NCBI GenBank assembly: GCA_964539475.1
Contig: CAZIIR010000002.1
Coordinates: 7,474-56,307 of the forward strand
Source: an uncultured Candidatus Saccharibacteria bacterium
Lineage (GTDB): Bacteria; Patescibacteriota; Minisyncoccia; Phycocordibacterales; XYD1-FULL-46-19
Direction of reading: 5' to 3'
Length of the DNA: 48,834 nucleotides
Shown here: positions 2,153 through 38,343 of the stretch, in pieces
How the letters are laid out: each line of letters begins with the position of its first letter
How positions within the stretch are numbered: position 1 is the first letter of the stretch
Position numbers and translations under genes: made by a program
Notes under the pieces: model-generated
Database searches by the model: none
What the model was told of the DNA's origin: nothing
What the model saw: only the letters and a program-made list of their open reading frames with translations

Positions 2153-3586
2153 ATGTCAGAACCAATCTGGCCTCAAATTTTAAAAAAGCTCCTTGAAATG
2201 GGGCTTCCGGGAATTGACCAGTTGGTTATCGAGAACTGGCTGGAGATATGTTTGTGCGATGGGATAGCTAATCGAAAGCTAAAACTCGTTGCCCAGACCG
2301 GCATTGTAAGAGATCGAGTGCAGAACGAACTTGCCGAAGGAATTCTGCAAGCGGTTCAAACTTTCGACTGGGGGAAAAACGTCATCAGAGTGGAAGTACA
2401 AGACGACCCTCGCCGTTGTTTTCCTCGAGATGAAGACTGCTTAGCAGAAAGTCCTGCCAACAATGAGCTAACGGCTGTAGCCGTCCAAGTTAAATCAACG
2501 GTTGCTGGACTCCAAACCAGGACTCAAGACAAGACGACAGTTTCCTACCCTGAATTTACCTTCGGTAACTTAATCGAAGGACCAGGCAATCGTTACGCCC
2601 GGGCTTTGGCGTTGGAGATGCCAGAACGGCAAACCAAAGAGAAACTTGTCTTAGTCTATGGGAAACCAGGTTCAGGCAAGACTCACCTCCTCCAGGCCAC
2701 CCACAAGGAGGCCTTGGCGAGAGCTCAGGATAAGTCGCATATTATCTCCGTCAGCGCCCAAGAATTCACGGACGAATTTATGGTCGCATTGGGACAAAAG
2801 AAGATGCTGGAGTTTGGCAGGAAATACGACCGGTGCAAATTCCTCATCTTCGATGAAGTCCAACTTCTGGCTGGTCGAGACAAGACACAAGAGACACTGA
2901 TTGGCATCCTGGACAAAATCCAGGAAAAAGGCGGGCGCGTTCTCATTGCCTCGCTAGTCCACCCCAAAGACGTGAAGTTAGACCCTAGTCTGAAGTCTCG
3001 ACTTTGTGGATTCAACTGCGAAAAGATTGAGCCACCACCAGTGGAGCTAAAAGAAGAAATTCTCAACCTCCACATCAGTAGGTCTCACCTAGCAGAAAAT
3101 CTCTGGCCCAGTGCCGAGATTGTTTCCTGGATCGCCCGAGAAGCCAACGGTGATGCGCGATTTCTACTTGGCCTGCTCAAGAGAGTGCTTAGTCATATTC
3201 GACTCGACCAGAAACCCCTGTCGCTCAAGGAAGTTCAGGAACTATTGTCGGATACTATGCCAAACCCTGTTGACTGTCTCTTGATTAAAAAAGTGGTGGC
3301 TTCGCACTACGGCGCCACTGTTGAGGCTTTGCATGGCCCAGGCAGAAACAAACTCATTGCCCGGCCCCGCCAGGTGGCAATGTACCTCTGTCGCAAGTTT
3401 CTTCCTGGCGAGAGCCTAGCAAAGATTGGCGAGCAATTTGGCAAACGCGACCACACAACGGTCGTGGCTGCAATCAAAGTCATAACCGATATTCTCGCCA
3501 ATGGGTCTGGTCAGGATGAGCTAGTAAGCGAGAAGGACAGCTTGGTGTCCGACTTACAAATAATAGAAAGGAGACTCCGAGACTAA
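2153..3586 (+). CDS. dnaA: DnaA-type replication initiator (divergent)
   Basis: Walker A is GKPGSGKTHLL and Walker B is FLIFDEVQLL. The box VII-like segment is SLKSRL..EKIEPP. C-terminal domain IV reads ARPRQVAMYLCRKFLPGESLAKIGEQFGKRDHTTVVAAIK. The N-terminus resembles DnaA domain I (IWPQILKKL...). AAAGGAG lies 8 nt before the ATG. Confidence 0.8.
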   Translation: MSEPIWPQILKKLLEMGLPGIDQLVIENWLEICLCDGIANRKLKLVAQTGIVRDRVQNELAEGILQAVQTFDWGKNVIRVEVQDDPRRCFPRDEDCLAESPANNELTAVAVQVKSTVAGLQTRTQDKTTVSYPEFTFGNLIEGPGNRYARALALEMPERQTKEKLVLVYGKPGSGKTHLLQATHKEALARAQDKSHIISVSAQEFTDEFMVALGQKKMLEFGRKYDRCKFLIFDEVQLLAGRDKTQETLIGILDKIQEKGGRVLIASLVHPKDVKLDPSLKSRLCGFNCEKIEPPPVELKEEILNLHISRSHLAENLWPSAEIVSWIAREANGDARFLLGLLKRVLSHIRLDQKPLSLKEVQELLSDTMPNPVDCLLIKKVVASHYGATVEALHGPGRNKLIARPRQVAMYLCRKFLPGESLAKIGEQFGKRDHTTVVAAIKVITDILANGSGQDELVSEKDSLVSDLQIIERRLRD

Positions 3587-3638: not shown

Positions 3639-5420
3639 TTACGACCGCTTGTGTTTGGCTCGCTCAGCCTCGGTCAAGTATTGCTTACGCAAGCGCACAC
3701 TTTTCGGCGTGATTTCTAAATATTCATCATCGGACATTATCTCCAGTCCCCGCTCAATCGTAATCGGTAGTGGTGGCACCAAATAAGTTTTTTCATCTGT
3801 ACCCGAAGCGCGCATATTGGTTAGCTGTTTACCCTTGGTTGGGTTCACGGCCATTTCTTCACCTTTTGAGGTGTTACCTACCACCATACCCTCATACACA
3901 TCTTCGGCTGCTCCAATATATAAAATACCTCGTGTCTGTAAGTTGGCGAGCGAAAAACCCAAAGCTTTGCCCGAGGCCATTGAAGTCATCGAACCCACCG
4001 CGCGTTTTTCAATTTCACCAGCGTAAGGGCGGAAGCCCACCACTCGGGTAGCAAAAATACCTTCACCTTTGGTGTCGATAACAAACTGCCCCCGGTAGCC
4101 CAAAAGACCGCGCGTTGGCCCCTCTAGAGTAAGACGGACAATATTGCCATCGACTTTCATATTGGTCATATGCACAGCCCGCTTGCCTAGTTTTTCAATT
4201 ACTGTTCCCTGCACTTCGGCCGGAACTTCAATCGTTACTTCTTCAAACGGCTCCGATTTTACTCCATCTACATCTTTAATAATAACTTGAGGCTGAGAGA
4301 CGGCCATTTCAAAACCTTCGCGTCTCATATTTTCCAAAAGGACCGCAATATGGAGCTCGCCTCGGCCATAAACCTTCATCGTGTCGCCATCAAAATCGAC
4401 CCGCAAACCCACGTTGATTTCCAATTCTTTCAAGAGACGCTCGCGGATCTGGCGACTAGTCACAAACTTTCCTTCGCGCCCACCAAACGGCGAGTCGTTG
4501 ACCAAAAAGTTTAGGGCGATAGTAGGTTCATCGACATGAATAACTGGTAACATTTCCGTATTTGGGTTGTCACAAATACTGTCACCAATATAAATTTCTG
4601 ACAGACCGGCAACCATCACAATATCTCCAGCCACCGCTTCTTTTACCTCTTTACGTCTAATCCCCTCAAAAGTGAAAAGTTTAGTAATCTTTCCTTCTTC
4701 TATCTGACCGTTTGATTTTTTAATATAAACCTTTCCCCCATCTTTTATTACTCCTTCATATACTCGCACTACTGCGAGCCGACCCAAAAAGTTGTCGTAA
4801 GCTAGGTTAAAAGGCTGGGCCCGCAACGGAGCCGAGGTGTCACTAGGCGCCGGCAAAACATGCTCTAAAACAGTATCGAGCAAGGGCTCCAAATTTTTGC
4901 GTTCATCTTCCAAATTTTTCATCGCTACCCCATCTTTACCAATAGCGTACACGGTGACGAAGTCTAATTGTTCGTCGGTTGCCCCCAATTCCATAAACAA
5001 TTCCAAAATCTCGTCGTGAGCCCGGGCCGCGTCGGCTGCAGGTTTATCAATTTTATTCAAAACGACAATTGGTTTATGACCAATCTCGAGTGATTTTTTT
5101 AACACGAAACGAGTCTGGGGCATGGGCCCTTCTTGGGCGTCGACCACTAAAAGCACCGAGTCGATCGAGCGTAACACACGTTCGACTTCCGAACCAAAGT
5201 CGGCGTGACCCGGGGTATCAACAATATTTATCTTGGTGCCTTTGTAGTTGATTGAGGTATTTTTAGCGTAAATAGTAATACCTCGCTCGCGCTCTAGGTC
5301 GTTAGAGTCCATCGATACTCCCTCTTCCACCATACCGGTCTCACGCATAATAGCGTCGGTGAGGGTGGTTTTGCCGTGGTCCACGTGAGCGATAATAGCG
5401 ATGTTTCGTATTTCAGACAT
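3639..5420 (-). CDS. typA: Translational GTPase TypA/BipA
   Basis: 593 aa. Motifs are [13 protein letters not shown] (G1), DTPGHADF (G3) and NKIDK (G4). The EF-G-like domains and the TypA-specific C-terminus are collinear throughout. Confidence 0.95.
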
Positions 5421-10603: not shown

Positions 10604-13600
10604 TTATTTATTAAGTTTTGAATCAATAATTTGCCAAACTTCAGAATTCTGCCATAAATCAGAGTGCGCATTAATAAAATTAAATCCTGTTCCTTTTGTA
10701 ACACCGATATTATTTGCTCTAACAAAAAACTTATTTGCTAGAGAAAAAACTGTTGGCGGGTAAGCTCCAAATAGTCCGGCGACGCCTATTTTACCTACTG
10801 AAAAAGCTCGCCCACCTAAAACCTGAATCGGGTCCACAAGACTGTAGGCATTAGCGTGTCTACCAATCATATCATAATTTGGTTTGTAATCAGCCCTCAC
10901 TGGAGTGCCTAGGGTAACCAAATTGTCAATCTTTCTTTTTGTCATCTTACTCAAGAGAATAGCAATGTTTCCGCCGTGACTATGGGCAATCACATTAAGT
11001 TTTTCATCATTTTTGAAATTATAATCTTTAATCATTTTATTTAAATTCTGAGCAGCTTCTTTCCGGGCAGGTCTATTATTTTCTCCCGACCAACTGAAAA
11101 TCTTTGGCTCCTCTTTAAATGTTTTACCAACCACCTCTATAAAATCTTTTGCTTGACCATTTTTTGACCAAGATTTTTTATTATGAAAAGTACCTGGAAT
11201 TATCACCGTTAATAAACCACTTGGATCTTTCATCCCAATTGGGTTATTTCTCGCATAACTATAACTATTTTGTTGTTGAGGATCTATTAATAGTTCTGCT
11301 GGTAACACCCAAAACATTGGATCCTGACTCAAAAACCGGCCGATTTTGCCGTTTTGATAGCGGGCATTAAGGTAGCTAAGTCCAGTAAAATCATCATACT
11401 CCTGGCCAATATATTTTTGGCTTTGATTATAAGTCGATATTTTTTGGTCGAGACGAAGCTCACCATAGGGGTAATAGTCGACTAGTTCACTAATGGCGCT
11501 GTTTTTATCAGTCACAAGACTAGTGCCAGAGAGATGATCAGTGTGAATATAATAAGGACTACTAGTAGCACTTTCACTACGAATCGTCGCCACCAAGCGG
11601 TCCCCAGCATAGATATGTTTATCAATAATTTGCCCAGAAATATCATAATTCGGACTGATATACAGTGTTGTACTGGTACCTGTTTTTTGAGAAATTCTTT
11701 GTCCTTCATTATCGTACTCATATGTAGTAACTAAATTACCAGTGATACTTTTTACTAAACGGTCATTATAGTCCCAAGTAAAAGTGGCACCTGGTGCCAT
11801 TAGCATATTTCCATTTTTATCATAAGAATAAGTTGAGGAGGCAATGGAGGTCACGGCTTGGGGCGAAGTATAGTCAACAGCACTGTAACCATAACTACCG
11901 CCCGGACCGCTTAAAATATTACCAGTTGGGCCGTAAGTAAAATTTTGACTATATAAAGTAGAGCTAGCATTTACTGCTGTAGCTTTGGTCAAACGATAAA
12001 GATCGTCATAAGTATAAGTTACTGTCTTCGTGAGCAGGTTAGGCGAAAGATCAATTTCTTTTGTAATATTTCCACCAGCATCATAAAGATAGCTCACTGA
12101 CTGATATGTTGTACTACCTTTCTTGGTTTCTTTGTTCTTTAGTTGATAATTTTTAGCTGAGTCATAGGTAAAAATATTTTCTATACCGTCGGCATTTTGC
12201 TGATAAGTATCCAACCCGTGAGGTCCATAGTCCAAATCAGCCACGACAGGAAGCACTGGCCCATTTAGAATATCTCGCCGTGATATTTTCTCTATTTGAC
12301 CAGACCGATTGTAATTATAAATTATCTCCATATTGTCAGGTAAGCGTTTAGAAACTAAATTTCCAGCCAGATCATAAGCATTGACGGTAGTATAAGAAAA
12401 CTGATTGTAAACTTTATTATCTACCCTAACCTCACCCCGTGGGGTATATTGATAATTTTTAGACAGTCCAAGAATAGCCACCTTGCATAAACGTCCAACT
12501 CCATTGACACAATTGTCATAGATATACTTAACCTCCGGACCGGCTGTAGCAATATAATCTTCCGTTAGTGGTCGGTTCAGTGGGTCATAAACATAATTAA
12601 CAATTTGTCCTAGCGGGTCTTTCCTTGATATCAAATTACCATTATCATCGTAATAATATGCCCAAAGACTAAAAGTCGTATCTGTCGACTGGTGTAAGTC
12701 TTGAGCGGTCAACCGGCGCCCTAAGTTATCATAAGTGAAATCACGAATATTATTGAGTGCATCTATAATCCTGATTAAATTTCCAGTGGGACTATAATAA
12801 TACCGAGTATTATAGAAACCATTGCCGTACTTTTCATCAACCAGAACTAGTCGCCCATAAGCATCTTTGGTATATTTTTTTACTTTTCCTAAAGGGTCAG
12901 TAACAGTGGTCACCCAATCATTATAAGTGTAATTAGTAGAACCAAGTGAATTAACAACTATTTGCGGACGACCAACGGCATCGTAAGTAAAATTAGTAGT
13001 GATACCGGTTGAAAAAATTGGGGTAGTATAATATGAACCCGCTGAAGTATAAGGTAAAGTTTGAGTTGCTAATTCTCCCTGAGGGTTATAGTTAAGGGAA
13101 GTTACCGCGTAGTCGTCAGCGTCCTCCATCGAAGTCCTTTCTTGGATTAGTCTGCCGAGACCGTCAAAGTATTGATAAACTTCCGTAAATAAATTGGCAG
13201 TCAGTGAAGTTTTGACCTTAACTGACTGTGGTATTGTTTCGTCTTGATACGAGATATCTCTAATAGTAACGGTGGCACCTGAGCCGGCTTTTTCCTGTTC
13301 CCTGATCGGTCGTCCCAGCCCATCATAAGTTTTTATTTTACTAAAACCATTGGCATCGATTTCTTCTATCACTTGACCGGACAAATAATCGTAACCAAAG
13401 GACATGGTCTGACCAAGGGTATTGATAGCACTCTTAGGGTAGAGCCCCAAAGAATCATACGCGTAAGAAGTATTTCCACCACGAGGATCAGTCACTTTCT
13501 GTAAAAGACCACGGTTATCATAACTCATAGACTTAGCAATCCACTTAGTGCCTCCGACCCACTCCTCAACTTTGGTTAAATTTCCTTTCAAGACTGCTCC

Positions 13601-16597
13601 ACTGGACAAATCATCATAGTAATATTTTTTATAAGAAACAGCGGCACCATTATTATTCTTGAACTCTTCAGTTTTAGGTAAACTAGATATTCCAATATCG
13701 TTGTTTAGAGCATAAGAATAAACTTGAGTGGTTTTGTCGATTCCGATATCACTAAATCGACCGTCCATATTAGCAGAAACTTCACCCCAGTTTTCCTTGT
13801 TTGTAATATTGCCAAATTTGTCATATTTATAAGTTTCCGCCCCATCACGGTGAGAACTGTCGCCGTCGTAAGTCAGTTTGACATTGGACGCCAAGAAAAT
13901 GAAGTTCCGCTCAAACCCTTGTTCCGTCGCCAAAATAGCACGATCCCACTGGCTAACATTCCGTTCAAATAAACTACCCACCGCGTCATATTGTTCAACT
14001 AGATAAGGACGGTTAATCTTACTAGGGTGATCCTCAAATTCACCGCTACTAGTGTCAGATTCATTACCCTGATAAAAATAGTTTTTAGTCAGATTACCCA
14101 AAGGGTCAATTATGTCCACCTCACCAAAGCCAGCGAACCGCCTATCAAAAGAATTTTTAAAATAATAAAATCCGTCTTTATATAGATATTTAGTGATTGC
14201 TTCCTGACCTAAGCCATCTTTTTCTATAATTTCAGACACAGTCGTAATAACCAAGGGAAGTTTTGGATTTAAAAGTTGCCCTTCGTCTCGATATTGAGTA
14301 CTAGGTTTATATTTTATAGCCACTTCCCCGCCCATAGCAATCTCAACTTTATTTAAAAGATCGGGCTTCGGTCCCTCATTTACATAAGTAGTTGCGTGAT
14401 AGGCTCCCCCATATATTTCATACCGCTGAACTAAATCTTCTAAGCCGTCACCATTTACATCAACGATTCTCACCCCTTGATCAACACCACCCAAATCGAC
14501 AAAAACATGAGGTAAAGACCATTCGACACTTCGCACCCAGGTGTTTCCAGTATTAAGATAAACTTCTTTATTGCTACCTTCCTTTGCTTTTACAATATCA
14601 ACCAAACCGTCACCATTGATATCAAAAAACCTAACCCCAAAATCTTCTCCAGGATCGTTATAACGAATTCCATAGGTCAAGTCGACCGGTAATTGCCAAT
14701 TACCATTTCCCCGCCAGTCAGAACCAGTATTTATCCGATAATCAGATTCAAATTCACCGGCATCAATCTTGACTCTTTTGACCATATCCGCCAAACCATC
14801 ATTATTAACATCCACCAGGCGCTCACCGGTATCTTGGCCGTCTAATATAAAATAATCCTGCGGTTGCATGTCGGTTCGCAGAGTCCAACCTTCTCCATTA
14901 TTACTATGAATGCGACGCAAATCAATTCTACTAGCCCAGGCTCCTAAGATCATATCTACCAAGCCGTCACCGTTCATGTCAGCAAAACGAGCACCAAAGT
15001 CTTTACCAGAATTGTTTCTATCAATATCGGCAGTAACTGCCTCCGGCAGAGTCCAAGTTCCATTACCAGTAAAACTATTCCTCATGTTTAGGAAGGAAAA
15101 TGTTATGATCGACTCATCATCCCATTGATTATTGGCTGTCCTCAAATGAAGATCAGGCAGTAAGTCTCCGTTTATATCTAAAAATTGTAGCCCAGAATCT
15201 CGCCCACCTTTAGTAAAGACTCCTTGCGTGACACTCGGAACTTCAACCCAATCTTGACCCGTATTCTGATATTGTTTTTGACTGTCACCAGACCGACTCC
15301 TTATAACATCAGCCAGACCATCGCCATTAATATCTCCAAAGCGAACTCCTTTGTCTTCACCTACCAAGTGTCCATCTTCACCACTCACTATGTCTTCTGG
15401 TAAGTCCGTCCAGCTACCCCACTGGTGAGCAGATTTTGAATAAAAAAATTTGGTCGCTGGAGCATTAGTCCAACTATTATCGTCAGATAATCCAGACATC
15501 TTGATAGACGACAACACCGACCGAACGCCGTTATCTCCAGACTCATAATTAAGTTCATATTTTCGTTCGAGTCGGTTACTGATTAAAACTTCTATTCTAG
15601 CTAGTCGTTGGTCAGTAAAAATTTCATAACCCGTCGCGTAAGAATAATAAATATCGGGTCGGTTCTCCCAATAAAATTCAACCTTAAAAATACCCGCCGT
15701 GTCCGAGTGGTTAGTATAAGTTATTTGAGAAGGATATATTTGCCCGGAGTGCTTTTCATATTCATAGCTGATAAAATTACCATTAGGGTCCCTAATTTCA
15801 TTAACCAGCCAGCGAGATGTCTTAGACTCGTCACTCGGGTCGCCCTGTCGCGATAAAAAATTTTGACCAAAAACATATTTTGTTCCATCCTTAGCGGTAA
15901 CAATCCATTGGTTTTCTTCGAAAATATATTTTCTAAAATCACCATTTTCAAATCTAGCTCCATGCTCTTGTTCATCAATCCTAGCTAATTCCCCATCAAG
16001 AGACGAACTAAAAATCTTGTCGCTATACATATTTTCAACTCCTCGCCTGTTTAATGTCTCTATATAAGGGATAGAGAGTTCCCAACCATAACCAACCAAA
16101 TTATCATTCTTTTGGTTATCACTACTGTAGCCAAGCTTTAATTCAGGAGTAAGGCCATTACGACCAGGCGGAAGATCTAATAAATAATCATAAGAAAAAG
16201 CTCCTGTAGATGAGTTGACTGTCACTGACTTAGATTTGGTCTTACTATCTCGAGCACTGCTGTTAATATCATCTTCTTCTAAGCTAGTCGCCTTTATTTT
16301 TTCAAGAGATTGTTCATCTTTATCCTTAGTTGCGAGTTCCTCCGCTGGCTCTTCGGGGATATCTTTAGAATCAGGTTCTGTGTCTTGACGAGGTTCTTGT
16401 GCTGGTTCTTCTGTTTCTGGGGCTGGCACTTCGAGCACAGATTCTTCAGCTAAAGCAAGCGGTGCTATCGAATGGGTTGTTAACAAAAAAGCCAGCAATA
16501 AAATTGCTGGCTTTTGGGCAAGTCCCTTCGAACCAAGGCGCTGGCGACGACATGAGGACATATAAATTATGGCTTTGTTGGCATTATAAATAACCAA
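10604..16597 (-). CDS. Secreted TcB/TcC-like RHS repeat protein with C-terminal lipase-type toxin domain (1997 aa)
   Basis: Uninterrupted 5994-nt ORF. The Sec-type signal is AILLLAFLLTTHSIAPLALA/EE. The SpvB-like block reads SVTVNSSTGAFSYDY..LPPGRNGLTPELKLGYSS..GYGWELS. There are six DxNGDGxxD FG-GAP/VCBS-type repeats, many YD repeats (YDxxGR) and an RHS core ending PIGMKDPSGL. The first ATG is at 16561 and is the likelier start, since 16597 is a TTG. Confidence 0.9.
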   Translation of the reverse strand: MVIYNANKAIIYMSSCRRQRLGSKGLAQKPAILLLAFLLTTHSIAPLALAEESVLEVPAPETEEPAQEPRQDTEPDSKDIPEEPAEELATKDKDEQSLEKIKATSLEEDDINSSARDSKTKSKSVTVNSSTGAFSYDYLLDLPPGRNGLTPELKLGYSSDNQKNDNLVGYGWELSIPYIETLNRRGVENMYSDKIFSSSLDGELARIDEQEHGARFENGDFRKYIFEENQWIVTAKDGTKYVFGQNFLSRQGDPSDESKTSRWLVNEIRDPNGNFISYEYEKHSGQIYPSQITYTNHSDTAGIFKVEFYWENRPDIYYSYATGYEIFTDQRLARIEVLISNRLERKYELNYESGDNGVRSVLSSIKMSGLSDDNSWTNAPATKFFYSKSAHQWGSWTDLPEDIVSGEDGHLVGEDKGVRFGDINGDGLADVIRSRSGDSQKQYQNTGQDWVEVPSVTQGVFTKGGRDSGLQFLDINGDLLPDLHLRTANNQWDDESIITFSFLNMRNSFTGNGTWTLPEAVTADIDRNNSGKDFGARFADMNGDGLVDMILGAWASRIDLRRIHSNNGEGWTLRTDMQPQDYFILDGQDTGERLVDVNNDGLADMVKRVKIDAGEFESDYRINTGSDWRGNGNWQLPVDLTYGIRYNDPGEDFGVRFFDINGDGLVDIVKAKEGSNKEVYLNTGNTWVRSVEWSLPHVFVDLGGVDQGVRIVDVNGDGLEDLVQRYEIYGGAYHATTYVNEGPKPDLLNKVEIAMGGEVAIKYKPSTQYRDEGQLLNPKLPLVITTVSEIIEKDGLGQEAITKYLYKDGFYYFKNSFDRRFAGFGEVDIIDPLGNLTKNYFYQGNESDTSSGEFEDHPSKINRPYLVEQYDAVGSLFERNVSQWDRAILATEQGFERNFIFLASNVKLTYDGDSSHRDGAETYKYDKFGNITNKENWGEVSANMDGRFSDIGIDKTTQVYSYALNNDIGISSLPKTEEFKNNNGAAVSYKKYYYDDLSSGAVLKGNLTKVEEWVGGTKWIAKSMSYDNRGLLQKVTDPRGGNTSYAYDSLGLYPKSAINTLGQTMSFGYDYLSGQVIEEIDANGFSKIKTYDGLGRPIREQEKAGSGATVTIRDISYQDETIPQSVKVKTSLTANLFTEVYQYFDGLGRLIQERTSMEDADDYAVTSLNYNPQGELATQTLPYTSAGSYYTTPIFSTGITTNFTYDAVGRPQIVVNSLGSTNYTYNDWVTTVTDPLGKVKKYTKDAYGRLVLVDEKYGNGFYNTRYYYSPTGNLIRIIDALNNIRDFTYDNLGRRLTAQDLHQSTDTTFSLWAYYYDDNGNLISRKDPLGQIVNYVYDPLNRPLTEDYIATAGPEVKYIYDNCVNGVGRLCKVAILGLSKNYQYTPRGEVRVDNKVYNQFSYTTVNAYDLAGNLVSKRLPDNMEIIYNYNRSGQIEKISRRDILNGPVLPVVADLDYGPHGLDTYQQNADGIENIFTYDSAKNYQLKNKETKKGSTTYQSVSYLYDAGGNITKEIDLSPNLLTKTVTYTYDDLYRLTKATAVNASSTLYSQNFTYGPTGNILSGPGGSYGYSAVDYTSPQAVTSIASSTYSYDKNGNMLMAPGATFTWDYNDRLVKSITGNLVTTYEYDNEGQRISQKTGTSTTLYISPNYDISGQIIDKHIYAGDRLVATIRSESATSSPYYIHTDHLSGTSLVTDKNSAISELVDYYPYGELRLDQKISTYNQSQKYIGQEYDDFTGLSYLNARYQNGKIGRFLSQDPMFWVLPAELLIDPQQQNSYSYARNNPIGMKDPSGLLTVIIPGTFHNKKSWSKNGQAKDFIEVVGKTFKEEPKIFSWSGENNRPARKEAAQNLNKMIKDYNFKNDEKLNVIAHSHGGNIAILLSKMTKRKIDNLVTLGTPVRADYKPNYDMIGRHANAYSLVDPIQVLGGRAFSVGKIGVAGLFGAYPPTVFSLANKFFVRANNIGVTKGTGFNFINAHSDLWQNSEVWQIIDSKLNK
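10607..11212 (-). other. C-terminal toxin tail (202 aa) downstream of the DPSGL autoproteolysis motif; alpha/beta-hydrolase lipase-like
   Basis: DPSGL is encoded at 11213-11227. The tail contains the nucleophile elbow NVIAHSHGGNIA (AxSxG, as in Bacillus-type lipases). Candidate acid and His residues are at SLVDPI and INAHSD. Confidence 0.6.
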
Positions 16598-31406: not shown

Positions 31407-32132
31407 TTAAGACAGGGAAATCTTAAACTCAACTTTCAACGCATTCTTCGCGGCCTCTGACTTGGCCTCCTTTTTGTTAAAACCTTCTCCCCTTCCAACT
31501 AGCCTGTCGCCAATGTATACACCGAACACCTTGATGTCGTTCTGACCACCTTCTGGCTTTAGATCAACATAGGTCGTAGTGAGCTTAAACTCCTTTTGGC
31601 TCAACTGCTGGAGTAGCCCAATCTCCGAGATAAATTGACCCTGAATCATCAGATCCGGCAGTCTCGACAACAAAAACTCATCCAAGAAAATCTCGACCGT
31701 CCCCAGTCCTCTATCCAGATAGATTGCTCCGGCTAGAGACTCGAAGACACAGGCAAGCAGGTAGTCTTTCAACCGGCCTTTTTCTACGGTTTCCTTTCTG
31801 GCGCCGGTGCCAATGCGAATGAACTTGTCCAGACCAAGCTCGGTTGAAGCTAACCCCAGGGTCTTGTTACAGGTCAAAGTGCAAAACATCGCCGTCAGCT
31901 CTCCCTCTGCTTTGTCAGGAAAAGATCTGAAGAGATGACTCGCCACTACTAGACCTACAACTTTGTCCCCGAGAAACTCCAGCCGTTCATAATCTTCTGT
32001 GACAGCCACTCTGGCTTCTTGCCGAAAAGAAGCATGGGTAAATGCCTGCTCAAGAAGAGACTTGTTTCGAAATATAATTCCGATAGTCTCTTCGATTCGC
32101 TCCACCTCCTTCAGCGATAAAATCGGGATCAT
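31407..32132 (-). CDS. rnc: Ribonuclease III
   Basis: The signature is YERLEFLGDKVVGLVVA. The second catalytic block is FESLAGAIYLD. The C-terminal dsRBD is GEGFNKKEAKSEAAKNAL. GGAGG lies 9 nt before the ATG. Confidence 0.9.
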   Translation of the reverse strand: MIPILSLKEVERIEETIGIIFRNKSLLEQAFTHASFRQEARVAVTEDYERLEFLGDKVVGLVVASHLFRSFPDKAEGELTAMFCTLTCNKTLGLASTELGLDKFIRIGTGARKETVEKGRLKDYLLACVFESLAGAIYLDRGLGTVEIFLDEFLLSRLPDLMIQGQFISEIGLLQQLSQKEFKLTTTYVDLKPEGGQNDIKVFGVYIGDRLVGRGEGFNKKEAKSEAAKNALKVEFKISLS

Positions 32133-32227: not shown

Positions 32228-32839
32228 TCACTGGGGCAACGATGCACCAGCACTCATCAACGCCAACTCGATCTTGGCGATGGCTTTTCTGTCCATCCCC
32301 TTGACCATCATAAGGCGACCACGACCACGAACAACAACATCACGAAGGGTGTTCACTTCTTTTCGTCGCAAGTTTTCCTCCACGGCTTTGTTGAGATCAC
32401 ACGAGGAAATATCTACGTCCAGTTTTTCGTCACCTCCTTCAGACACTCCTCCAACGAGTTCTTTCCCCTTCGGCAAATCGACCACCCCCATCGGCTCCCG
32501 AAACCTTTCCACCCGGTCAAACACCAAAGCCTTGTCTCGTAGCTGTTTAATGGCAACCGAAACAGCATCTTTGATATCAGGTGAAAAGCCATTCGATTTA
32601 ACCTGCCAGTGGTCATCCACCAACGAAGCCAAAGAAGAAAACCCTTTCGCTTGCAGGTATAAGACCACCTCCGAGGGTAACCCGAGAAAATCCACCATCA
32701 GACGTTCCTTGGGTATCACCAGGCAGTTGGGATGGACATTCGTCACGTAGATATCCGACTCGCCGTCATGCGTTTCGATATCGACATGCAGATTGATCCC
32801 CCCGACCTCCAAAACACCCTGGATCTTTACTTGGGGCAT
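32228..32839 (-). CDS. Hypothetical protein with RpoA alpha-CTD-like helix-hairpin-helix segment(s)
   Basis: Residues 143-200 read DISSCDLNKAVEENLRRKEVNTLRDVVVRGRGRLMMVKGMDRKAIAKIELALMSAG. They follow the alphaCTD pattern L.L..R..N.L....I.T..DL......L....G.G.K....I...L...G. A weaker copy lies at residues 48-102. AAAGGAGG lies upstream of the ATG. Confidence 0.7.
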   Translation of the reverse strand: MPQVKIQGVLEVGGINLHVDIETHDGESDIYVTNVHPNCLVIPKERLMVDFLGLPSEVVLYLQAKGFSSLASLVDDHWQVKSNGFSPDIKDAVSVAIKQLRDKALVFDRVERFREPMGVVDLPKGKELVGGVSEGGDEKLDVDISSCDLNKAVEENLRRKEVNTLRDVVVRGRGRLMMVKGMDRKAIAKIELALMSAGASLPQ

Positions 32840-32854
32840 TATCGTGCCTCCTTT

Positions 32855-34564
32855 CTATTTGCGTTTCAGTGAAGGTTGTATCATCTTCAGGTAGTCGAGA
32901 CGTTCACTGACCGTGTCTTCGTCATCCAGATTAAAGACCAGGGCGATCTTCGATAGCGGCAATTTAAGCCGTCGTCGGAGTTCATACATAGCCGTCATCT
33001 GAACAAATCGGGCTCGGGAGCCAACCTCACTATAAGCCACAATTGACGCCACATCAGTCTGTTGCTGTTTGGCTACCATTTCCAATACTTCTGTTACTAA
33101 CTCCTCCTCGGTCTTGTTTTCTCGGGTCCACTCCTTAGACTTTTCTCCCACTTTGATCCTCGTCTTCTGAATCAAGTATGGTTCTCTCGTCTTTGGGTAC
33201 TCCGATCGAACTTTCTCCCAAACATCCCGACTACGTAGTTTGTCGAGCGACTTCTCTATTCTCTGCCGGATCCGCTCCCGCGTGACGCCAAAGTATCCTC
33301 CGATTTCTTCCAGTGTTTGGGGGTGCTTCCCACCACAACCGAAGTACATCTCTAGACACTTCTGGTCAACTTCAGGCAAATTAGCCGCCAACACTTCTGC
33401 AACCACGTTACTGGTCTCTACCACTGACAACGTGTCACTTACCCGCTCCGAACCGTCTCCAATTCTCTCGGACAGCGACCTCTCATCGTCTTCTGCGTTG
33501 GGGGCATCAAAAGAAACAGTTGCTCCAGAACACAACACCAACATCTCTTCCAGCTTGTCGATATCGATTTCCGCAAACTCTGAGAGTTGGTCAAGCGTAG
33601 GTGGACGCCCAAGTTTTGTAGTCAATTCCTTTCTCAACCGCCAGATGTTCCTGACGGACGACGACAAATGAATAGGTATCCGTACCGGCCCAGCGGCATT
33701 CTGGATTGCCCGGTCGACTCTTTGCCGTACCCATTGCATCGCGTACGTACTAAAGCGAAAGCCTCGAGTATAGTCGTACATCTCCACGGCTCTCATTAGG
33801 CCCATAGCTCCCTCTTGATCGAGATCGTCGAGATCAAGCATGACAACTTTTTGTGGCTCTAACCTCCCATAGTTCATCAAAGCCATTTTCCGAGCCAAGC
33901 CAAGGTTTGCCGCCACAATAGCGTTTCGAGCGACCAGCTTTTCTTCTTCCGTACCTACCCGATAAGCCTTAAACAGCGGGAACTGCTCTCCTATCAGTCT
34001 CGACGCTGCCTCATCCTCCTCTGCTGTTGGTACCGGTAGAGACAAAAGCGGCTGGTCTCGGTCTTTAGCAAAACCCAACAGATCGGTTTCTTCCGGCCTA
34101 AATTCAAGGTCAAAATGTGCCAAACGGATTTTAACTTCGTCGAGCACATCCCGACCACTGCTATATTTCAGTTTCCTTACCATCGTCCGACCAGTTTTGA
34201 GTTCGCAAAAAAGCCGATCCAATTCTTCTTCGGTTCGAGCGGTCAGGTCTCGAACGACCTGAATCCCCGCGGACCAAAGAAAGAGTTTTGCCCGATTAGA
34301 CAGGACCAACTCTTCAATTGGATTGTCCAAAAACCCGTCATGCAAGCGGTCAGACCGGGGATCCTGCGCAACAGCTTTGGTGGGAATCATTACCTCATTC
34401 AACAAAGCAAAAAGTTCGCTGTCAGGATTGACAACAACACTTTTCTTCCCAAATCCTCGGACATAAAGGCCCGATCGTTTGAGGTCGACCTCAACCTGAA
34501 TGCGACGTGATCGCTTGTCAGGCAAGGTCAGTCTCAGCATTCCTTTCAGCAAGAGAGACTGCAC
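32855..34564 (-). CDS. Sigma-70 family factor (RpoD-like regions 2-4) with extra N-terminal and C-terminal domains
   Basis: Region 2 reads DLDQEGAMGLMRAVEMYDYTRGFRFSTYAMQWVRQRVDRAI and VRIPIHL. Region 4 reads LEEIGGYFGVTRERIRQRIEKSLDKLR. The core is flanked by about 200 extra N-terminal and 120 extra C-terminal residues. The start is GTG 34564 or ATG 34540. Confidence 0.9.
   Translation of the reverse strand: MQSLLLKGMLRLTLPDKRSRRIQVEVDLKRSGLYVRGFGKKSVVVNPDSELFALLNEVMIPTKAVAQDPRSDRLHDGFLDNPIEELVLSNRAKLFLWSAGIQVVRDLTARTEEELDRLFCELKTGRTMVRKLKYSSGRDVLDEVKIRLAHFDLEFRPEETDLLGFAKDRDQPLLSLPVPTAEEDEAASRLIGEQFPLFKAYRVGTEEEKLVARNAIVAANLGLARKMALMNYGRLEPQKVVMLDLDDLDQEGAMGLMRAVEMYDYTRGFRFSTYAMQWVRQRVDRAIQNAAGPVRIPIHLSSSVRNIWRLRKELTTKLGRPPTLDQLSEFAEIDIDKLEEMLVLCSGATVSFDAPNAEDDERSLSERIGDGSERVSDTLSVVETSNVVAEVLAANLPEVDQKCLEMYFGCGGKHPQTLEEIGGYFGVTRERIRQRIEKSLDKLRSRDVWEKVRSEYPKTREPYLIQKTRIKVGEKSKEWTRENKTEEELVTEVLEMVAKQQQTDVASIVAYSEVGSRARFVQMTAMYELRRRLKLPLSKIALVFNLDDEDTVSERLDYLKMIQPSLKRK
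32879..33106 (-). other. DnaA domain IV-like segment at the sigma factor C-terminus (aa about 487-562)
   Basis: The segment is VLEMVAKQQQTDVASIVAYSEVGSRARFVQMTAMYELRRRLKLPLSKIALVFNLDDEDTVSERLDYLK. Compare the dnaA-like gene in this window: [40 protein letters not shown]. Confidence 0.5.
34100..34333 (-). other. AlphaCTD-like segment inside the sigma factor (aa about 78-155)
   Basis: The segment is LDNPIEELVLSNRAKLFLWSAGIQVVRDLTARTEEELDRL....SGRDVLDEVKIRLAHFDLEF. Confidence 0.55.
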
Positions 34565-34649
34565 TGTTTACCATCCTTTCTGTACGTTAAAGTTGAGTTG
34601 TCAAAAAATCAGTTACTGCCAAGAAGTCTCCCATCAATATAGAGAGACG

Positions 34650-34685
34650 TCAATATTGACATAATATCCTATACATTATAGGATA
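34650..34685. promoter_or_regulatory. Palindromes in the divergent sigma / zinc-protein promoter region
   Basis: tcaatattga (34650-34659) is a perfect 10-nt palindrome that overlaps TTGACA (34656-34661). tatcctata-cat-tataggata (34665-34685) is a 9-nt inverted repeat. It carries TATAAT on the minus strand and TAGGAT on the plus strand. Confidence 0.55.
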
Positions 34686-34717
34686 CCAAAGGATATTTCA
34701 CCTTTAGGAGGGTTAGC

Positions 34718-35383
34718 ATGAGTAAAATCTTTTGTCAGATCGTCGGACATGACATCAAAGCTCAGACTTGCCTTTCCACTCAAGGTCAAGAAAGGTGCTT
34801 TGGTTGCGCGTCCCTATATCGCCTGTGTGAAATGTGCAAACACCGACCTGTCTCGGTCTCGATGACCGGATTGTGCGATGACTGCCTTCACATTAGATTG
34901 TCTCAGGAAAAAACCCCGGTGCCACCGTTACAAAAAAGCACCATGGTAACCTGCCAAGTGTTGTCACGAACAACAAGTGTAGCAGTCTGTGTAGCTACCC
35001 AAGGCCAGTCAGGTTGCCGGGGCTGTAGTGAGCCGGCTCGACTCTGTGAATTTTGCAAACAACGGACCGCTCAATTAGCACGCTTAGGCCTCTGCTTGTC
35101 GTGTGCTGTTCAAGAGTTTGCTCCCGAATGGAAATGGCTGGGACCATCAGATGAAAATCATAAGGTCCCGTTACCACTCCAAGCAAAGATTCCGGAATTA
35201 AACCAAAACCTGAGCGACCAAGACAAGACCACGCCCAACCAATTTAGCCTTGAAACAAAAATCAAACGGCTGGAGGGGTTAGCCAAGAGCATTGGCGACG
35301 GCAAAATCTTGTCTCAATTAATAAGGGAGGTAATCGAAGATTTAAAGGCACTAGAGGCACTGCGGAAAAATGAATCACTGTGA
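34718..35383 (+). CDS. Cysteine-rich protein with two identical-spacing 8-Cys zinc modules and a C-terminal coiled coil
   Basis: Cys residues are at 6, 18, 27, 30, 37, 40, 53 and 56, and again at 79, 91, 100, 103, 110, 113, 126 and 129. The spacing C-x11-C-x8-C-x2-C-x6-C-x2-C-x12-C-x2-C is the same in both modules. AGGAGGG lies 5 nt before the ATG and a terminator follows. Confidence 0.75.
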   Translation: MSKIFCQIVGHDIKAQTCLSTQGQERCFGCASLYRLCEMCKHRPVSVSMTGLCDDCLHIRLSQEKTPVPPLQKSTMVTCQVLSRTTSVAVCVATQGQSGCRGCSEPARLCEFCKQRTAQLARLGLCLSCAVQEFAPEWKWLGPSDENHKVPLPLQAKIPELNQNLSDQDKTTPNQFSLETKIKRLEGLAKSIGDGKILSQLIREVIEDLKALEALRKNESL

Positions 35384-35477: not shown

Positions 35478-36335
35478 TTACGAGACCTTTTCTTCCAGCT
35501 GTTTCAATCCCTGCTGGATTTGCTCTTCCAGAAGAGCGAGCTGTTTGAATAGGGTCTTCCTCTCGTCTGAAGTCTTCAACTTGGAAAAATCATAAGACTC
35601 CAGCCCGTCGTAGAGGTTGATGACGAGCGACGACAAACGGTTATAACTCATCGCCTGTTCACCGTTGCCTGTAGACTTGTGTCGCCCCTTTTTGCCACCA
35701 TCAGACTGGGACTGCTGTTGCAGGCTGCCGCGAAGTTGGTCGGGACTGAACCCGAAACGTACCGCTTGTTCGGCCGCCTTGTATCGAACCTTGTTTGGAA
35801 CTTCGAGCAGAACTTTCGCGTGAGAAAGGTTCAGGGCCCCGTCGTCCAGGAACTTCTGCACCGCTTCTGGCAGTTCGAGCAGGGCGAGCCTTTCGTTGAT
35901 GAACAACTCACTCTTGCCGATCTCGGCCGACGTCTGCTTGATGTCCCCACCTTGGTCAGCGACCAAGTCTTTCAAAGCCTCCGCCTCTTCGATCAAAGTC
36001 AGGTCTTCACGCTGGATATTTTCCACGAGAGCTCCGCGACGCGCTTCCTTGTCGCTGGCTTTTCTGAGGATCGACTTAATCTCCAGCAGGCCCAACAGTT
36101 TGTGCGCCCGAAGACGGCGATCGCCCATCAGAAGTTGGAACTCGCCCTCCTTCACTTGCCTCACAACAATCGGCTCATTCAGCCCGTCTTTCTTGATCGA
36201 GGCCGCCAGTTCGGCGATTTTGGTCTCGTCGAACTTTCTCCGCGGTTGGTAGGGATTCGGTTCGATTTTATCAACCGGTAACATCAACAGCTTGTCTGTC
36301 GGTTTGGACTCTTTCGCAGTAGCCATGATTGGCAA
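35478..36335 (-). CDS. ParB/Spo0J-type partition protein (no adjacent parA)
   Basis: The ParB N-terminal domain reads PNPYQPRRKFDETKIAELAASIKKDGLNEPIVV and has the arginine patch MGDRRLRA. The HTH region is ENIQREDLTLIEEAEAL. AAAGGAG lies upstream. The promoter is TTGACC-17-TAGAAG. Confidence 0.85.
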   Translation of the reverse strand: MPIMATAKESKPTDKLLMLPVDKIEPNPYQPRRKFDETKIAELAASIKKDGLNEPIVVRQVKEGEFQLLMGDRRLRAHKLLGLLEIKSILRKASDKEARRGALVENIQREDLTLIEEAEALKDLVADQGGDIKQTSAEIGKSELFINERLALLELPEAVQKFLDDGALNLSHAKVLLEVPNKVRYKAAEQAVRFGFSPDQLRGSLQQQSQSDGGKKGRHKSTGNGEQAMSYNRLSSLVINLYDGLESYDFSKLKTSDERKTLFKQLALLEEQIQQGLKQLEEKVS

Positions 36336-36504: not shown

Positions 36505-38343
36505 GTGATAGTCCCTTACCCATATCAAGCCGAATGTCTTAAGGCCGTAGAAGAAACCCTTTCCCAAGGGCGTAAAAAAGCTCTGATTGTAATGGCAAGC
36601 GGTCTGGGTAAAACCATCACGGCTGCCTTAACTTTCAAAGCTTTCTGTTGTAAACAACCTGGGAGTCGCCTTCTTTTCTTATGTCACCAAAATGACATCT
36701 TGGAACAGGCATCGATCGAATTCCGACGAGTCCTGGGCGACACCTACACTTACGGACTCTTTACTGGTCGTGACAAAATTCTCTACCATGAAGCGGATTG
36801 TCTGTTTGCATCGTTCCAAACAATGCAACGGAAAAAACAACAGTTCGACAAGGACGATTTTGATGTGATCATTGTTGACGAGAGTCACCATACTCACGCC
36901 AAGACGTATCTACCGACCGTTCGATACTTCCGTCCGACCTTTTTGTTGGGAATAACGGCTACACCGGAGCGGTCAGACCTGCTGGACATTCGCCATGTTT
37001 ATGGACGAGAGATATTCAATCTCGACCTCCATCAAGCGATCGCCAGAAGACTCCTGACACCAGTGCATTACGTCCTCTTGATGGATGAGATCAGACGGTC
37101 AAAAACGATCAAGACGCCAGAAGGCATGATGTCCATTGCCAAGCTCAACAAGATGCTTTTTGTGCCAAAACGAGACAAGGAGATTGTCAGGATTATCAAG
37201 CAATACCAAGATAGGCTTGATGACCCCCGGACAATTATCTTTTGTCAGTCGATTGAGCACAGTCGGCGACTGGAAAAGTTACTGGGAGGAGCACTACTGA
37301 TTCACAATGCGGTCAAACCAGCAGACCGCAAACAACGGTTACTTCAGTTCCGTCAGTCTGGTGGCACAATTGTTACCATCGACATGTTCAACGAAGGGAT
37401 TGACGTTCCTTCAACCAACTTGATTGTGTTTCTTCGTTCAACATCTTCACCCAGAATCTTCTACCAACAACTTGGCCGCGGACTGCGTAAGTCACCGGGA
37501 AAGAAAGAGGTGACCATATTAGATTTAGTGGGAAATGTCGAACGTATCGAGACCATCCACAAGCTCAAACAGATGGTGGAAGCCGAGCAAGAGTTACTGA
37601 AAAGAGAATCGACCAGCAAACACAAAAGGTCCAGATACGACCAAGAGCCTCTGGAAGTTGAAACTGGGGAGATTAGTTTCGACGAGGTGATTGTTCCTAT
37701 TTTACACTGCCTTAAGTTCTTACGCCGGACTTACAACTCTGTCGATCTGGTTGAAGAACTACGGCAAATGGCGAACAAGCTTGGACGGAATATTACCGTT
37801 GCGGACATTCAGGAGGCACATAAAAAAGATAGGAGCGCTGGCTTACATCTTTTTTACAAAAACTTCGGTAGTATCGCCAATGCACGAGAAGCGGCCGGAT
37901 TAGATCCTGGCAGAAGGAGCTACACCGAGAGTGAAGATCTGACCGAGATGTTGAAAAAACTCGGGAAAGATTTGGGGCGTACCCCTAACGCCAACGACAT
38001 TAAGCGGGCTTCAAAAGCCGGCCTATGTCCTAGTGTAGGGACCTACATCAAGTTCTTTGGCTCGGTTGGTGCAGCACAATCTGCCGCCGGGTTTAAACCA
38101 AACCCTCATGGTTTCGACCCAGACAGAGCTTACCAAGGGTGGTTTACAGACGAAAACCTTATTGAGTATTACCAACAGCTCGAGAGAGAACTGGGAAGGA
38201 GACCCCGTCAGAGAGATATTCAATCTCGCTATAGACGAGGCGAGACCCCGGCTTACAGATCATACTTCCAACATTTTTCTAACTTCGCCAACATGCATCG
38301 CATAATTGCGGAGCGAGAAAAAGAAACCGAGAGGAAGGATTAA
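36505..38343 (+). CDS. Superfamily-2 helicase (ResIII/DEAH type) with three C-terminal tandem repeats
   Basis: Motif I is MASGLGKT, motif II is IIVDESHH, motif III is GITATPER and motif VI is QQLGRGLR. The start is GTG with GGAGG 7 nt upstream. Confidence 0.9.
   Translation: MIVPYPYQAECLKAVEETLSQGRKKALIVMASGLGKTITAALTFKAFCCKQPGSRLLFLCHQNDILEQASIEFRRVLGDTYTYGLFTGRDKILYHEADCLFASFQTMQRKKQQFDKDDFDVIIVDESHHTHAKTYLPTVRYFRPTFLLGITATPERSDLLDIRHVYGREIFNLDLHQAIARRLLTPVHYVLLMDEIRRSKTIKTPEGMMSIAKLNKMLFVPKRDKEIVRIIKQYQDRLDDPRTIIFCQSIEHSRRLEKLLGGALLIHNAVKPADRKQRLLQFRQSGGTIVTIDMFNEGIDVPSTNLIVFLRSTSSPRIFYQQLGRGLRKSPGKKEVTILDLVGNVERIETIHKLKQMVEAEQELLKRESTSKHKRSRYDQEPLEVETGEISFDEVIVPILHCLKFLRRTYNSVDLVEELRQMANKLGRNITVADIQEAHKKDRSAGLHLFYKNFGSIANAREAAGLDPGRRSYTESEDLTEMLKKLGKDLGRTPNANDIKRASKAGLCPSVGTYIKFFGSVGAAQSAAGFKPNPHGFDPDRAYQGWFTDENLIEYYQQLERELGRRPRQRDIQSRYRRGETPAYRSYFQHFSNFANMHRIIAEREKETERKD
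37732..38304 (+). repeat. Three tandem repeats of about 55-65 aa resembling the homing-endonuclease-associated repeat
   Basis: The three units are LVEELRQMANKLGRNITVADIQ...FYKNFGSIANAREAAGL, LTEMLKKLGKDLGRTPNANDIK...YIKFFGSVGAAQSAAGF and LIEYYQQLERELGRRPRQRDIQ...YFQHFSNFANMHRI. Confidence 0.6.

Follow-up and report, generated by a model that had tools for sequence, protein, structure and literature searches.

The gene described here lies on the minus strand at 32855..34564 of a 48,834-nucleotide stretch of DNA (the window) from an uncultured Candidatus Saccharibacteria bacterium (contig CAZIIR010000002.1 of assembly GCA_964539475.1). In the list of open reading frames (ORFs) it encodes 569 amino acids (aa), with a GTG start and a stop codon at 32855-32857. 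The protein, called the sigma fusion below, consists of an N-terminal β-rich domain (Nbeta), a domain like the RNA polymerase α subunit's C-terminal domain (alpha-CTD), sigma-70 regions 2-4, and a domain derived from domain IV of DnaA (DnaA-IV). It is followed on the same strand by genes for a small partner protein and RNase III, and on its other side are genes for a divergently transcribed zinc-ribbon protein and ParB. We hold the domain identifications with high confidence. Together with the mechanism proposed in the Discussion, they make the sigma fusion, on balance, probably a lineage-specific initiation factor of the sigma-70 family in a clade of Patescibacteria (the candidate phyla radiation, CPR).

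A Shine-Dalgarno-like AAAGGA was found upstream of the gene, and inspection of the upstream sequence revealed no alternative in-frame start. Since the protein aligns with its relatives from residue 1, with M1, K7, G8, L10 and R11 matching, the GTG start is supported. A preliminary description of this DNA had reported the same reading frame, and the peptides that it quoted were all found in place; it had also cautioned that its proposal would fail if a frameshift or an assembly error had joined separate genes. In run SRR12762285, assembled independently by Logan (locus L082), an identical 569-aa protein with identical neighbours was found, and the domain order was the same in more than 40 homologues in colinear alignments, which excluded such a join.

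Sigma core and linkers

The sigma-70 core with regions 2, 3 and 4 occupies aa 206-446 (33227..33949, minus strand), in agreement with the preliminary description, which had placed these regions at aa about 205-446. The Pfam models matched region 2 (Sigma70_r2, PF04542) at aa 243-287 with E=4.8e-10, region 3 (Sigma70_r3) at aa 306-371 with E=3.1e-6, and region 4 (Sigma70_r4, PF04545) at aa 394-444 with E=4.9e-13. NCBIfam models of the RpoD/RpoS/SigA type matched aa 205-454 at 1e-42 to 1e-49, all far under their equivalog cut-offs; in the test for group 1 membership, the RpoD equivalog models, with cut-offs of 354-572, gave scores of 162-167 bits. Aligned with residues 371-613 of E. coli sigma-70, the core shows 35% identity, and the equivalents of Y430, W434, R436, Q437, R441, H455, R584, E585, R586, R588 and Q589 are kept. 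In sigma-70 these are the residues that read the -10 and -35 elements, and their conservation therefore suggests sigma-70-like promoter recognition.

The sigma fusion shares with the group 1 and group 2 sigma-70 factors (RpoD, RpoS, SigA) regions 2-4 and largely conserved contacts to the -10, extended -10 and -35 elements. It differs from them in falling below every NCBIfam RpoD/RpoS cut-off, in its N-terminal alpha-CTD-like and C-terminal DnaA-IV-like domains, and in the absence of regions 1.1 and 1.2, for which the Pfam scan gave no PF03979 or PF00140 match. PF00140 was present in every ordinary sigma relative compared.

The core is connected to the flanking domains by two conserved linkers. 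The linker into region 2 (aa 160-205; 33950..34087, minus strand) carries the family motif LP.PT...IGEQFPLFKAYR, and its residues G192 and F198 are nearly invariant among 43 members. AlphaFold, whose models of segments of this protein rest on alignments of two to three sequences, predicted a helix at aa 181-194 with a pLDDT (predicted local distance difference test) of about 80. The linker past region 4 (aa 447-483; 33116..33226, minus strand) has a VWE...K..VGE motif that is conserved in the family alignments, and helices were predicted at aa 448-455 and 462-482 in a model of aa 447-569. The remaining segment at the N-terminus, Nbeta (aa 1-52; 34409..34564, minus strand), is common to the downstream partner protein and is considered with it below.

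Alpha-CTD-like domain

The alpha-CTD-like domain is a double helix-hairpin-helix domain at aa 72-159 (34088..34351, minus strand). Pfam RNA_pol_A_CTD (PF03118) matched aa 78-116 with E=1e-5, and its 25.6 bits exceed the gathering score (23.8). A profile built from aa 72-159 of six family sequences matched alpha-CTD structures of B. subtilis (3IHQ, 1Z3E and 3GFK) with E of about 1e-7; profile positions 3-87 aligned to B. subtilis alpha-CTD residues 4-73, which is the full domain, and all of the first 41 structure matches were alpha subunits. In a BLASTP comparison, aa 51-159 aligned with a real RpoA of 307 aa (P0122) at 38% identity (E=8e-11), and the alignment reached the RpoA C-terminus. The AlphaFold model of aa 1-200 had a mean pLDDT of 56 and was poor outside the alpha-CTD segment, which itself was of moderate quality (means of 47-79 over 10-residue blocks). 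In a Foldseek search, 50 of the 50 matches listed were RNA polymerase entries, with template modelling (TM) scores of 0.76-0.86 for isolated alpha-CTD chains. The alpha-CTD pattern that the preliminary description had recognized at aa about 78-155 was thus firmly borne out by Pfam, profile search, BLASTP and Foldseek, and aa 72-159 are a genuine homologue of the alpha-CTD.

The homology covers the whole domain and extends to the alpha-CTDs of B. subtilis, E. coli and other bacteria. The copy in the sigma fusion differs from them in three respects. It is attached to a sigma core, with no alpha N-terminal (assembly) domain in the Pfam scan; it has a basic insertion; and it keeps the 265 DNA-binding determinant only in part. 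The insertion, FCELKTGRTMVRKLKYSS, lies between the two hairpins at aa about 118-136 (34157..34213, minus strand) and is about 15-19 residues long. It appears as a single 15-residue gap in the alignment with RpoA P0122 and as a gap against the B. subtilis alpha-CTD as well, and across the family it is variable in length and often rich in K/R. Residues of the 265 determinant were numbered by an E. coli RpoA 249-329 reference, which reproduces the published residue numbers. In this numbering R265, G296 and R297 are kept, while N268, C269, K298 and S299 are replaced by L, F, D and V, respectively. Conservation of the determinant does not extend to the family as a whole; at position 298, 20 of 41 members have an acidic residue.

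C-terminal DnaA-IV-derived domain

The C-terminal domain (aa 484-569; 32858..33115, minus strand) is best described as a degenerate, acidic paralogue of DnaA domain IV. In relatives, two tandem small helical domains follow region 4, a proximal one (D4a) and a distal one (D4b), and in the family alignments the protein of the window has the proximal copy only. The distal domain is a clear member of the DnaA-IV family Bac_DnaA_C (PF08299), with Pfam scores reaching 1e-32, and a four-sequence D4b profile matched the DnaA structures of M. tuberculosis, Aquifex, E. coli, Thermotoga and Bacillus at 2e-12 to 2e-7. The proximal domain was connected to the distal one by hhalign, which gave a probability of 95-96% and P values of 4e-8 to 4e-9 over 57-70 columns. 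These columns take in two N-terminal helices that are present in DnaA-IV and absent in sigma region 4. The single D4a sequence of the window, compared with D4b, still gave a probability of 94% (P=1e-7). Bac_DnaA_C was the commonest Pfam match among 14 D4a copies (3/14, best 2e-4), and the AlphaFold model of aa 447-569, with a mean pLDDT of 72, has five helices in the order found in DnaA-IV. The profile-profile chain from D4a to D4b to DnaA-IV indirectly supports the view that aa 484-569 arose by duplication of a canonical DnaA domain IV and have since diverged from it.

A different origin was considered for D4a, namely that it is a duplicated sigma region 4, as the D4a of locus L085 matches Sigma70_r4_2. 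It was rejected, with an hhalign probability of 0.3% as against 96% for D4b.

The residues that contact the DnaA box were compared in the numbering of an E. coli DnaA 374-467 reference, which likewise reproduces the published residue numbers. DnaA residues R399, P423, D433, H434, T435 and H439 correspond to E, S, D, E, D and E in the D4a of the window, so that only D433 is kept. The segment at DnaA 432-439 reads D-D-E-D-T-V-S-E, and the charge of the recognition helix is -4. In all D4a copies, position 399 is non-basic and the recognition helix is acidic, which makes DNA binding by the D4a of the window unlikely. The distal domains are of another kind. In about 17 D4b copies, D433 and H434 are both present together with T or S at 435; R399, R407, P423, R432 and H439 are likewise kept in most of these, and many D4b copies carry the full set of DnaA-box contacts. 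Compared with DnaA itself, the sigma fusion lacks the AAA+ domain, and its D4a, which has the same order of five helices as its paralogue D4b, is without R399, H434, T435 and H439. Matches to the DnaA-box consensus in the window were at chance level; they formed no cluster, and none was near the sigma locus.

Family and domain architectures

An exhaustive HMMER search covering 1.84 billion representative proteins yielded about 45 clusters (at 50% identity) that match from the N-terminal/alpha-CTD region through sigma to the C-terminal domain. Other searches returned far fewer relatives. A word-indexed search for full-length relatives found only two, P0001 and P0002, and one with the N-terminal profile likewise gave no more than two proteins, including a real RpoA. 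A scan of species-representative genomes returned ordinary sigma factors only, and as one of its patterns was generic and the other too narrow, it says little about distribution; its best locus (L002) was a normal Saccharibacteria rpoD adjoining dnaG. The preliminary description had suggested surveying related genomes for the architecture, which does recur: the sigma fusion is not a one-off, but belongs to a family of about 45 clusters. The metagenome-assembled genome GCA_964366545.1 also carries the family.

Sigma70 r2 and r4 were matched by Pfam in all 43 aligned members, Bac_DnaA_C in 29 (best 1e-32), RNA_pol_A_CTD in 28, DEAD and Helicase_C in 19, HA2_C in 17, and OB_NTP_bind in 13. With local hidden Markov models (HMMs), the alpha-CTD-like domain was found ahead of the sigma core in 43/43, Nbeta in 28/43, D4a and/or D4b in about 36/43, and a further alpha-CTD-like domain at the very C-terminus in 8/43. 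About 19 of the 43 have a DEAH/HrpA-type helicase (DEAD, Helicase_C, HA2 and OB) N-terminal to the alpha-CTD, which brings these proteins to ~1220-1480 aa. One of them, the 1299-aa protein of L085, consists of helicase, alpha-CTD, sigma, D4a, D4b and alpha-CTD, in this order. In such members (L085 4159-8058, P0124 and others), a superfamily 2 (SF2) helicase is physically tied to an initiation factor. In P0001, the D4a module lies in a separate overlapping frame just past the sigma stop (L083, 1528-1842), either as a natural split gene or through a sequencing frameshift.

Full-text literature searches found no description of a sigma factor with an alpha-CTD or DnaA-IV appendage, and no model in NCBIfam, Pfam or PADLOC describes the fusion architecture, in line with the statement in the preliminary description that no sigma factor with either appendage was known to it. 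Among the viral contigs of IMG/VR no family member was found, only plain sigma cores. We conclude that the family comprises sigma-70 factors with a conserved, previously undescribed multi-domain architecture.

Partner protein

The partner gene (32228..32839, minus strand) begins 15 nucleotides past the sigma stop and encodes 203 aa, comprising an Nbeta domain, a helix-hairpin-helix module and a C-terminal alpha-CTD-like domain. It matched the NCBIfam rpoA models at 8e-5 and the Pfam alpha-CTD model at 0.034, and a profile of its C-terminal domain matched the T. thermophilus alpha-CTD structure at 3.5e-5. The gene is conserved in five loci, of which L001, L088, L100 and L101 may be named. When the Nbeta domains of sigma and partner were compared by hhalign, the probability was 89% (P=2e-6).

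The distribution of these domains followed a clear pattern. Nbeta and a fused C-terminal alpha-CTD were never found together: the fused domain occurs in 0/28 members with Nbeta and in 8/15 of the others (Fisher p=4.4e-5). The partner gene follows sigma genes of the Nbeta type (the window, L001, L100 and L101) and is absent after those of the fused type (L085, L086 and L102), where RNase III comes next. The C-terminal alpha-CTD-like domain of the partner is the one that is fused to sigma in other family members, and this pattern of fusion and fission suggests that the two proteins work together and are probably linked by their Nbeta domains.

Gene block and neighbouring genes

The sigma gene is part of a block that consists of ParB, the divergent zinc-ribbon protein, sigma, the optional partner of ~200 aa and RNase III, and that was found in the window and in L001, L085, L097, L100, L101 and L102. 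Compared with their counterparts in the other loci, all block genes of the window show 34-51% identity (tblastn); the block has therefore diverged as a unit. The RNase III gene of the window (31407..32132, minus strand; Pfam) comes after the partner gene, and in all the other loci examined (L001, L085, L086, L088, L097, L100, L101 and L102) RNase III likewise follows either sigma or the partner. The ParB gene (35478..36335, minus strand; Pfam ParB_N and HTH_ParB) has the same position in L001, L085, L097, L100 and L101.

The zinc-ribbon gene (34718..35383, plus strand) is divergent from sigma and encodes 221 aa with two repeated CxxC...CxxC motifs; the window copy gave no Pfam match. Its homologues are equally placed in L001, L085, L097, L100 and L101 (six loci with the window), and longer orthologues in L001, L097, L100 and L101 carry FtsK-gamma winged-helix repeats. 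This protein could be a regulator of sigma. A promoter scan of the divergent intergenic region between the two genes (34565..34717) gave sigma-70-like matches on each strand (minus, TTGGTA-17-TATTAT; plus, TTGACA-17-TAGGAT), although the number of matches is no higher than in shuffled sequences. Two short palindromes at 34634-34690, ATCCTATA-ATG-TATAGGAT and GTCAATATTGAC, overlap these promoter-like sites; they are not conserved in the related loci.

The contexts of the block are chromosomal. In L001 (767-9783), rpsJ (S10) and rplC (L3), as a rule direct neighbours in the S10 operon, are visibly separated by an insertion of the genes for HU, ParB, the zinc-ribbon protein, sigma, the partner and RNase III. 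In L100 (552-11442), the block directly follows rpsJ, and the contig ends at RNase III, ahead of where rplC could show. In L097, the block is located beside lexA and rarA-like genes.

Several other features of the window were recorded. Adjoining ParB is a gene for an SF2 helicase of 612 aa (36505-38343, plus strand) with ResIII, Helicase_C and three homing-endonuclease-associated HNH repeats, whose best PADLOC match was to type IV methyl-directed restriction enzymes. The dnaA gene (2153-3586, plus strand) is normal, with full AAA+ and domain IV. It is followed by bipA (3639-5420, minus strand), whose product is 89-91% identical to proteins of Candidatus Vogelbacteria, Paceibacterota or Patescibacteria. 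By its BipA, the DNA of the window derives from a CPR bacterium of the Paceibacteria (Vogelbacteria-like). A 1997-aa ORF (10604-16597, minus strand) lies in a stretch of low G+C content (35-40%, against 45-50% around it). Between 42892 and 48698, longer conserved intergenic modules contain AATTTGTTAACAC five times; four of the copies are exact and the fifth has one mismatch. When two mismatches are allowed, the motif has ten matches, a count reached by 0/100 shuffles. On the minus strand the copies resemble TTAACA-17-TATAAG/TAGAAA promoters, with the 10-bp palindrome TTGTTAACAA over the -35 position. No copy of AATTTGTTAACAC was found near the sigma gene or in 99 related loci. Scans for tRNA genes and Rfam families gave no match.

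Discussion

The domain content described above suggests a mechanism, to which we give slightly less than an even chance. The sigma fusion would bind core RNA polymerase and direct it to sigma-70-like promoters. Its Nbeta domain would pair with that of the co-transcribed 203-aa partner, and this pairing would tether the two helix-hairpin-helix modules of the partner to the holoenzyme. Relatives could reach the same end with an alpha-CTD-like module fused to the sigma C-terminus. Along with the two modules of the partner, the alpha-CTD-like domain and its basic loop would offer alpha-CTD-like surfaces on the holoenzyme, and the loop may add a non-specific DNA contact.

The geometry of the holoenzyme gives an idea of where the C-terminal module would be. 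Region 4 lies on the -35 element with its C-terminus towards upstream DNA, and the alpha-CTD docks alongside. Since the C-terminus of region 4 faces upstream DNA, a domain fused ~40 residues further on would cover roughly -45 to -60. The C-terminal module is thus predicted just upstream of the -35 element, at the place normally taken by the alpha-CTD. In relatives, the canonical D4b probably reads a DnaA-box-like 9-mer, for which a TTATCCACA-like 9-mer is predicted, whereas for the D4a of the window no specific DNA binding is predicted. Since its DnaA-box readers have become acidic and the alpha-CTD determinant is only partly kept, the appendages of the window protein are more likely to be docking or regulatory modules than readers of sequence. 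Most likely they would serve as protein-docking or regulatory modules, for example by masking region 4 in cis or by binding another factor.

A parallel exists among the extracytoplasmic function (ECF) sigma factors, of which groups ECF41 and ECF42 have regulatory C-terminal extensions. In these, an extra domain past region 4 can modulate sigma in cis, which would be the most likely role for the acidic D4a. The sigma fusion is not an ECF factor, however, since region 3 is present and regions 2 and 4 are RpoD-like, and its extension is a derivative of DnaA-IV and not a SnoaL-like or tetratricopeptide repeat (TPR) domain.

Several observations weigh against this proposal. The direct comparisons of the C-terminal domain with DnaA-IV were all sub-threshold, though their direction agrees with that of the profile chain. 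Bac_DnaA_C matched aa 492-553 in the correct register with 13.2 bits (E=0.095; cut-off 31.5), and the isolated D4a of the window gave 16 bits (E=0.013). A profile of 14 D4a sequences matched just one solved structure over the full domain, Aquifex DnaA, at E=0.077. Foldseek on the C-terminal model gave no significant match; DnaA entries ranked 3, 8-12 and 15, with E>1 throughout, among other helix-turn-helix folds. The parallel to DnaA-IV that the preliminary description had drawn at aa about 487-562 thus holds through the chain of profiles and not through direct Pfam, profile or Foldseek matches. For Nbeta, AlphaFold predicted two strands with low confidence, and the proposed Nbeta-Nbeta pairing is deduced from gene fusion and fission. 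The alpha-CTD-like domain may still bind DNA, given that R265, G296 and R297 are kept and the insertion is basic. In L100, a second, ordinary RpoD/RpoS-like sigma of 356 aa is encoded beside the block, so that the fusion protein need not be the sole sigma factor. Finally, the closest relative of the sigma fusion is only ~41% identical, compared with 91% for the BipA of the same window. The two are discordant, and this may mean that close relatives are without the block, that the block has had a separate history, or that the libraries do not contain close relatives; BipA was returned by the libraries as a self-match and the sigma fusion was not.

Four other explanations were weighed. In the model of the preliminary description, both appendages read sequence, one UP-element-like AT-rich DNA and the other DnaA-box-like sites, so that a single polypeptide would make three or four specific promoter contacts. 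Both domains are indeed homologous to DNA-binding domains, and the model can draw on the kept R265, G296 and R297 and the K/R-rich insertion of the window protein. It is plausible for those relatives whose D4b keeps most or all DnaA-box contacts. The protein of the window has D4a only, as acidic as all other D4a copies, with DnaA residues R399, R432, H434, T435 and H439 replaced by E, D, E, D and E; in its alpha-CTD-like domain N268, K298 and S299 have become L, D and V, in a determinant that is not family-conserved. With DnaA-box matches at chance level in the window and none near the locus, we regard this model as unlikely, and the claim of three or four DNA-contacting modules is not supported for this protein.

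It is less likely still that the family is mainly a replication- or chromosome-linked factor, in which the DnaA-IV module targets RNA polymerase to origin-proximal DnaA boxes or competes with DnaA there, the copy in the window having decayed. Transcription would then be coupled to the initiation of replication or to segregation. Consistent with this, ~17 D4b copies keep D433, H434 and T/S435, most of them also R399 and H439; ParB and a protein with FtsK-gamma winged helices, of the KOPS type (FtsK orienting polar sequences), are constant neighbours; and dnaA is located in the same window. However, the link to the origin comes from gene neighbourhood alone, of which RNase III and genes for ribosomal proteins are just as constant a part, and the window has neither a functional-looking DnaA-box reader in this protein nor a cluster of DnaA boxes.

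A role in defence or in a mobile element, as an MzaA-like or phage-type sigma outside the host transcription apparatus, is very improbable. Among named models, the best score in both NCBIfam and PADLOC was that of MzaA (NF041931 / PDLC02203), the MZA anti-phage system's sigma factor, which shares with the sigma fusion a sigma core and a long N-terminal extension. The helicase resembling type IV restriction enzymes is nearby, and the sigma block has diverged far more from its relatives than BipA from its own. The match to MzaA is nevertheless limited to the sigma core and, at 182.5 bits, lies below the cut-off of 800; PADLOC matched neither an MZA partner gene nor another defence component among the neighbours, where the gene context is a different one; the viral contigs of IMG/VR hold plain sigma cores only; and in several lineages the block stands in chromosomal contexts (rpsJ/rplC; lexA, rarA). 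An artefact, in which a frameshift or an assembly error fused separate genes, is effectively refuted by the identical ORF in an independent assembly and by more than 40 colinear homologues, even if the separate frame in P0001 shows that split forms or sequencing errors exist.

The reading that we favour, a lineage-specific initiation factor of the sigma-70 family, may be part of a larger rearrangement, which we put forward as a rather doubtful possibility. In this clade of Patescibacteria, promoter recognition would have been rebuilt around sigma, with the alpha-CTD copied onto sigma and a tethered partner, a DnaA head placed behind region 4 as a reader of upstream elements, and a DEAH helicase fused in front in about half of the members. 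These modules would take over the roles of the alpha-CTD in contacting upstream DNA and in docking activators. One publication (PMC8321222) states that the alpha subunits of Parcubacteria lack the CTD; the statement is absent from the text of the paper cited there, and it serves as a lead only. If it is true, relocation of the alpha-CTD to sigma becomes an attractive explanation, and the sigma-borne modules might compensate for the missing domain.

Sigma factors and the alpha-CTD are known from textbooks as separate parts of bacterial RNA polymerase, and reading replication origins is the hallmark of DnaA domain IV. The sigma fusion raises the question of whether an acidic D4a auto-inhibits sigma as region 1.1 does, and as a natural case of domain relocation it could guide the engineering of orthogonal sigma factors. 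A conserved family that unites sigma, alpha-CTD and DnaA-IV in a single polypeptide, in many cases along with a DEAH helicase and a putatively tethered partner, indicates that promoter recognition can be arranged in another way in the large, uncultured CPR.

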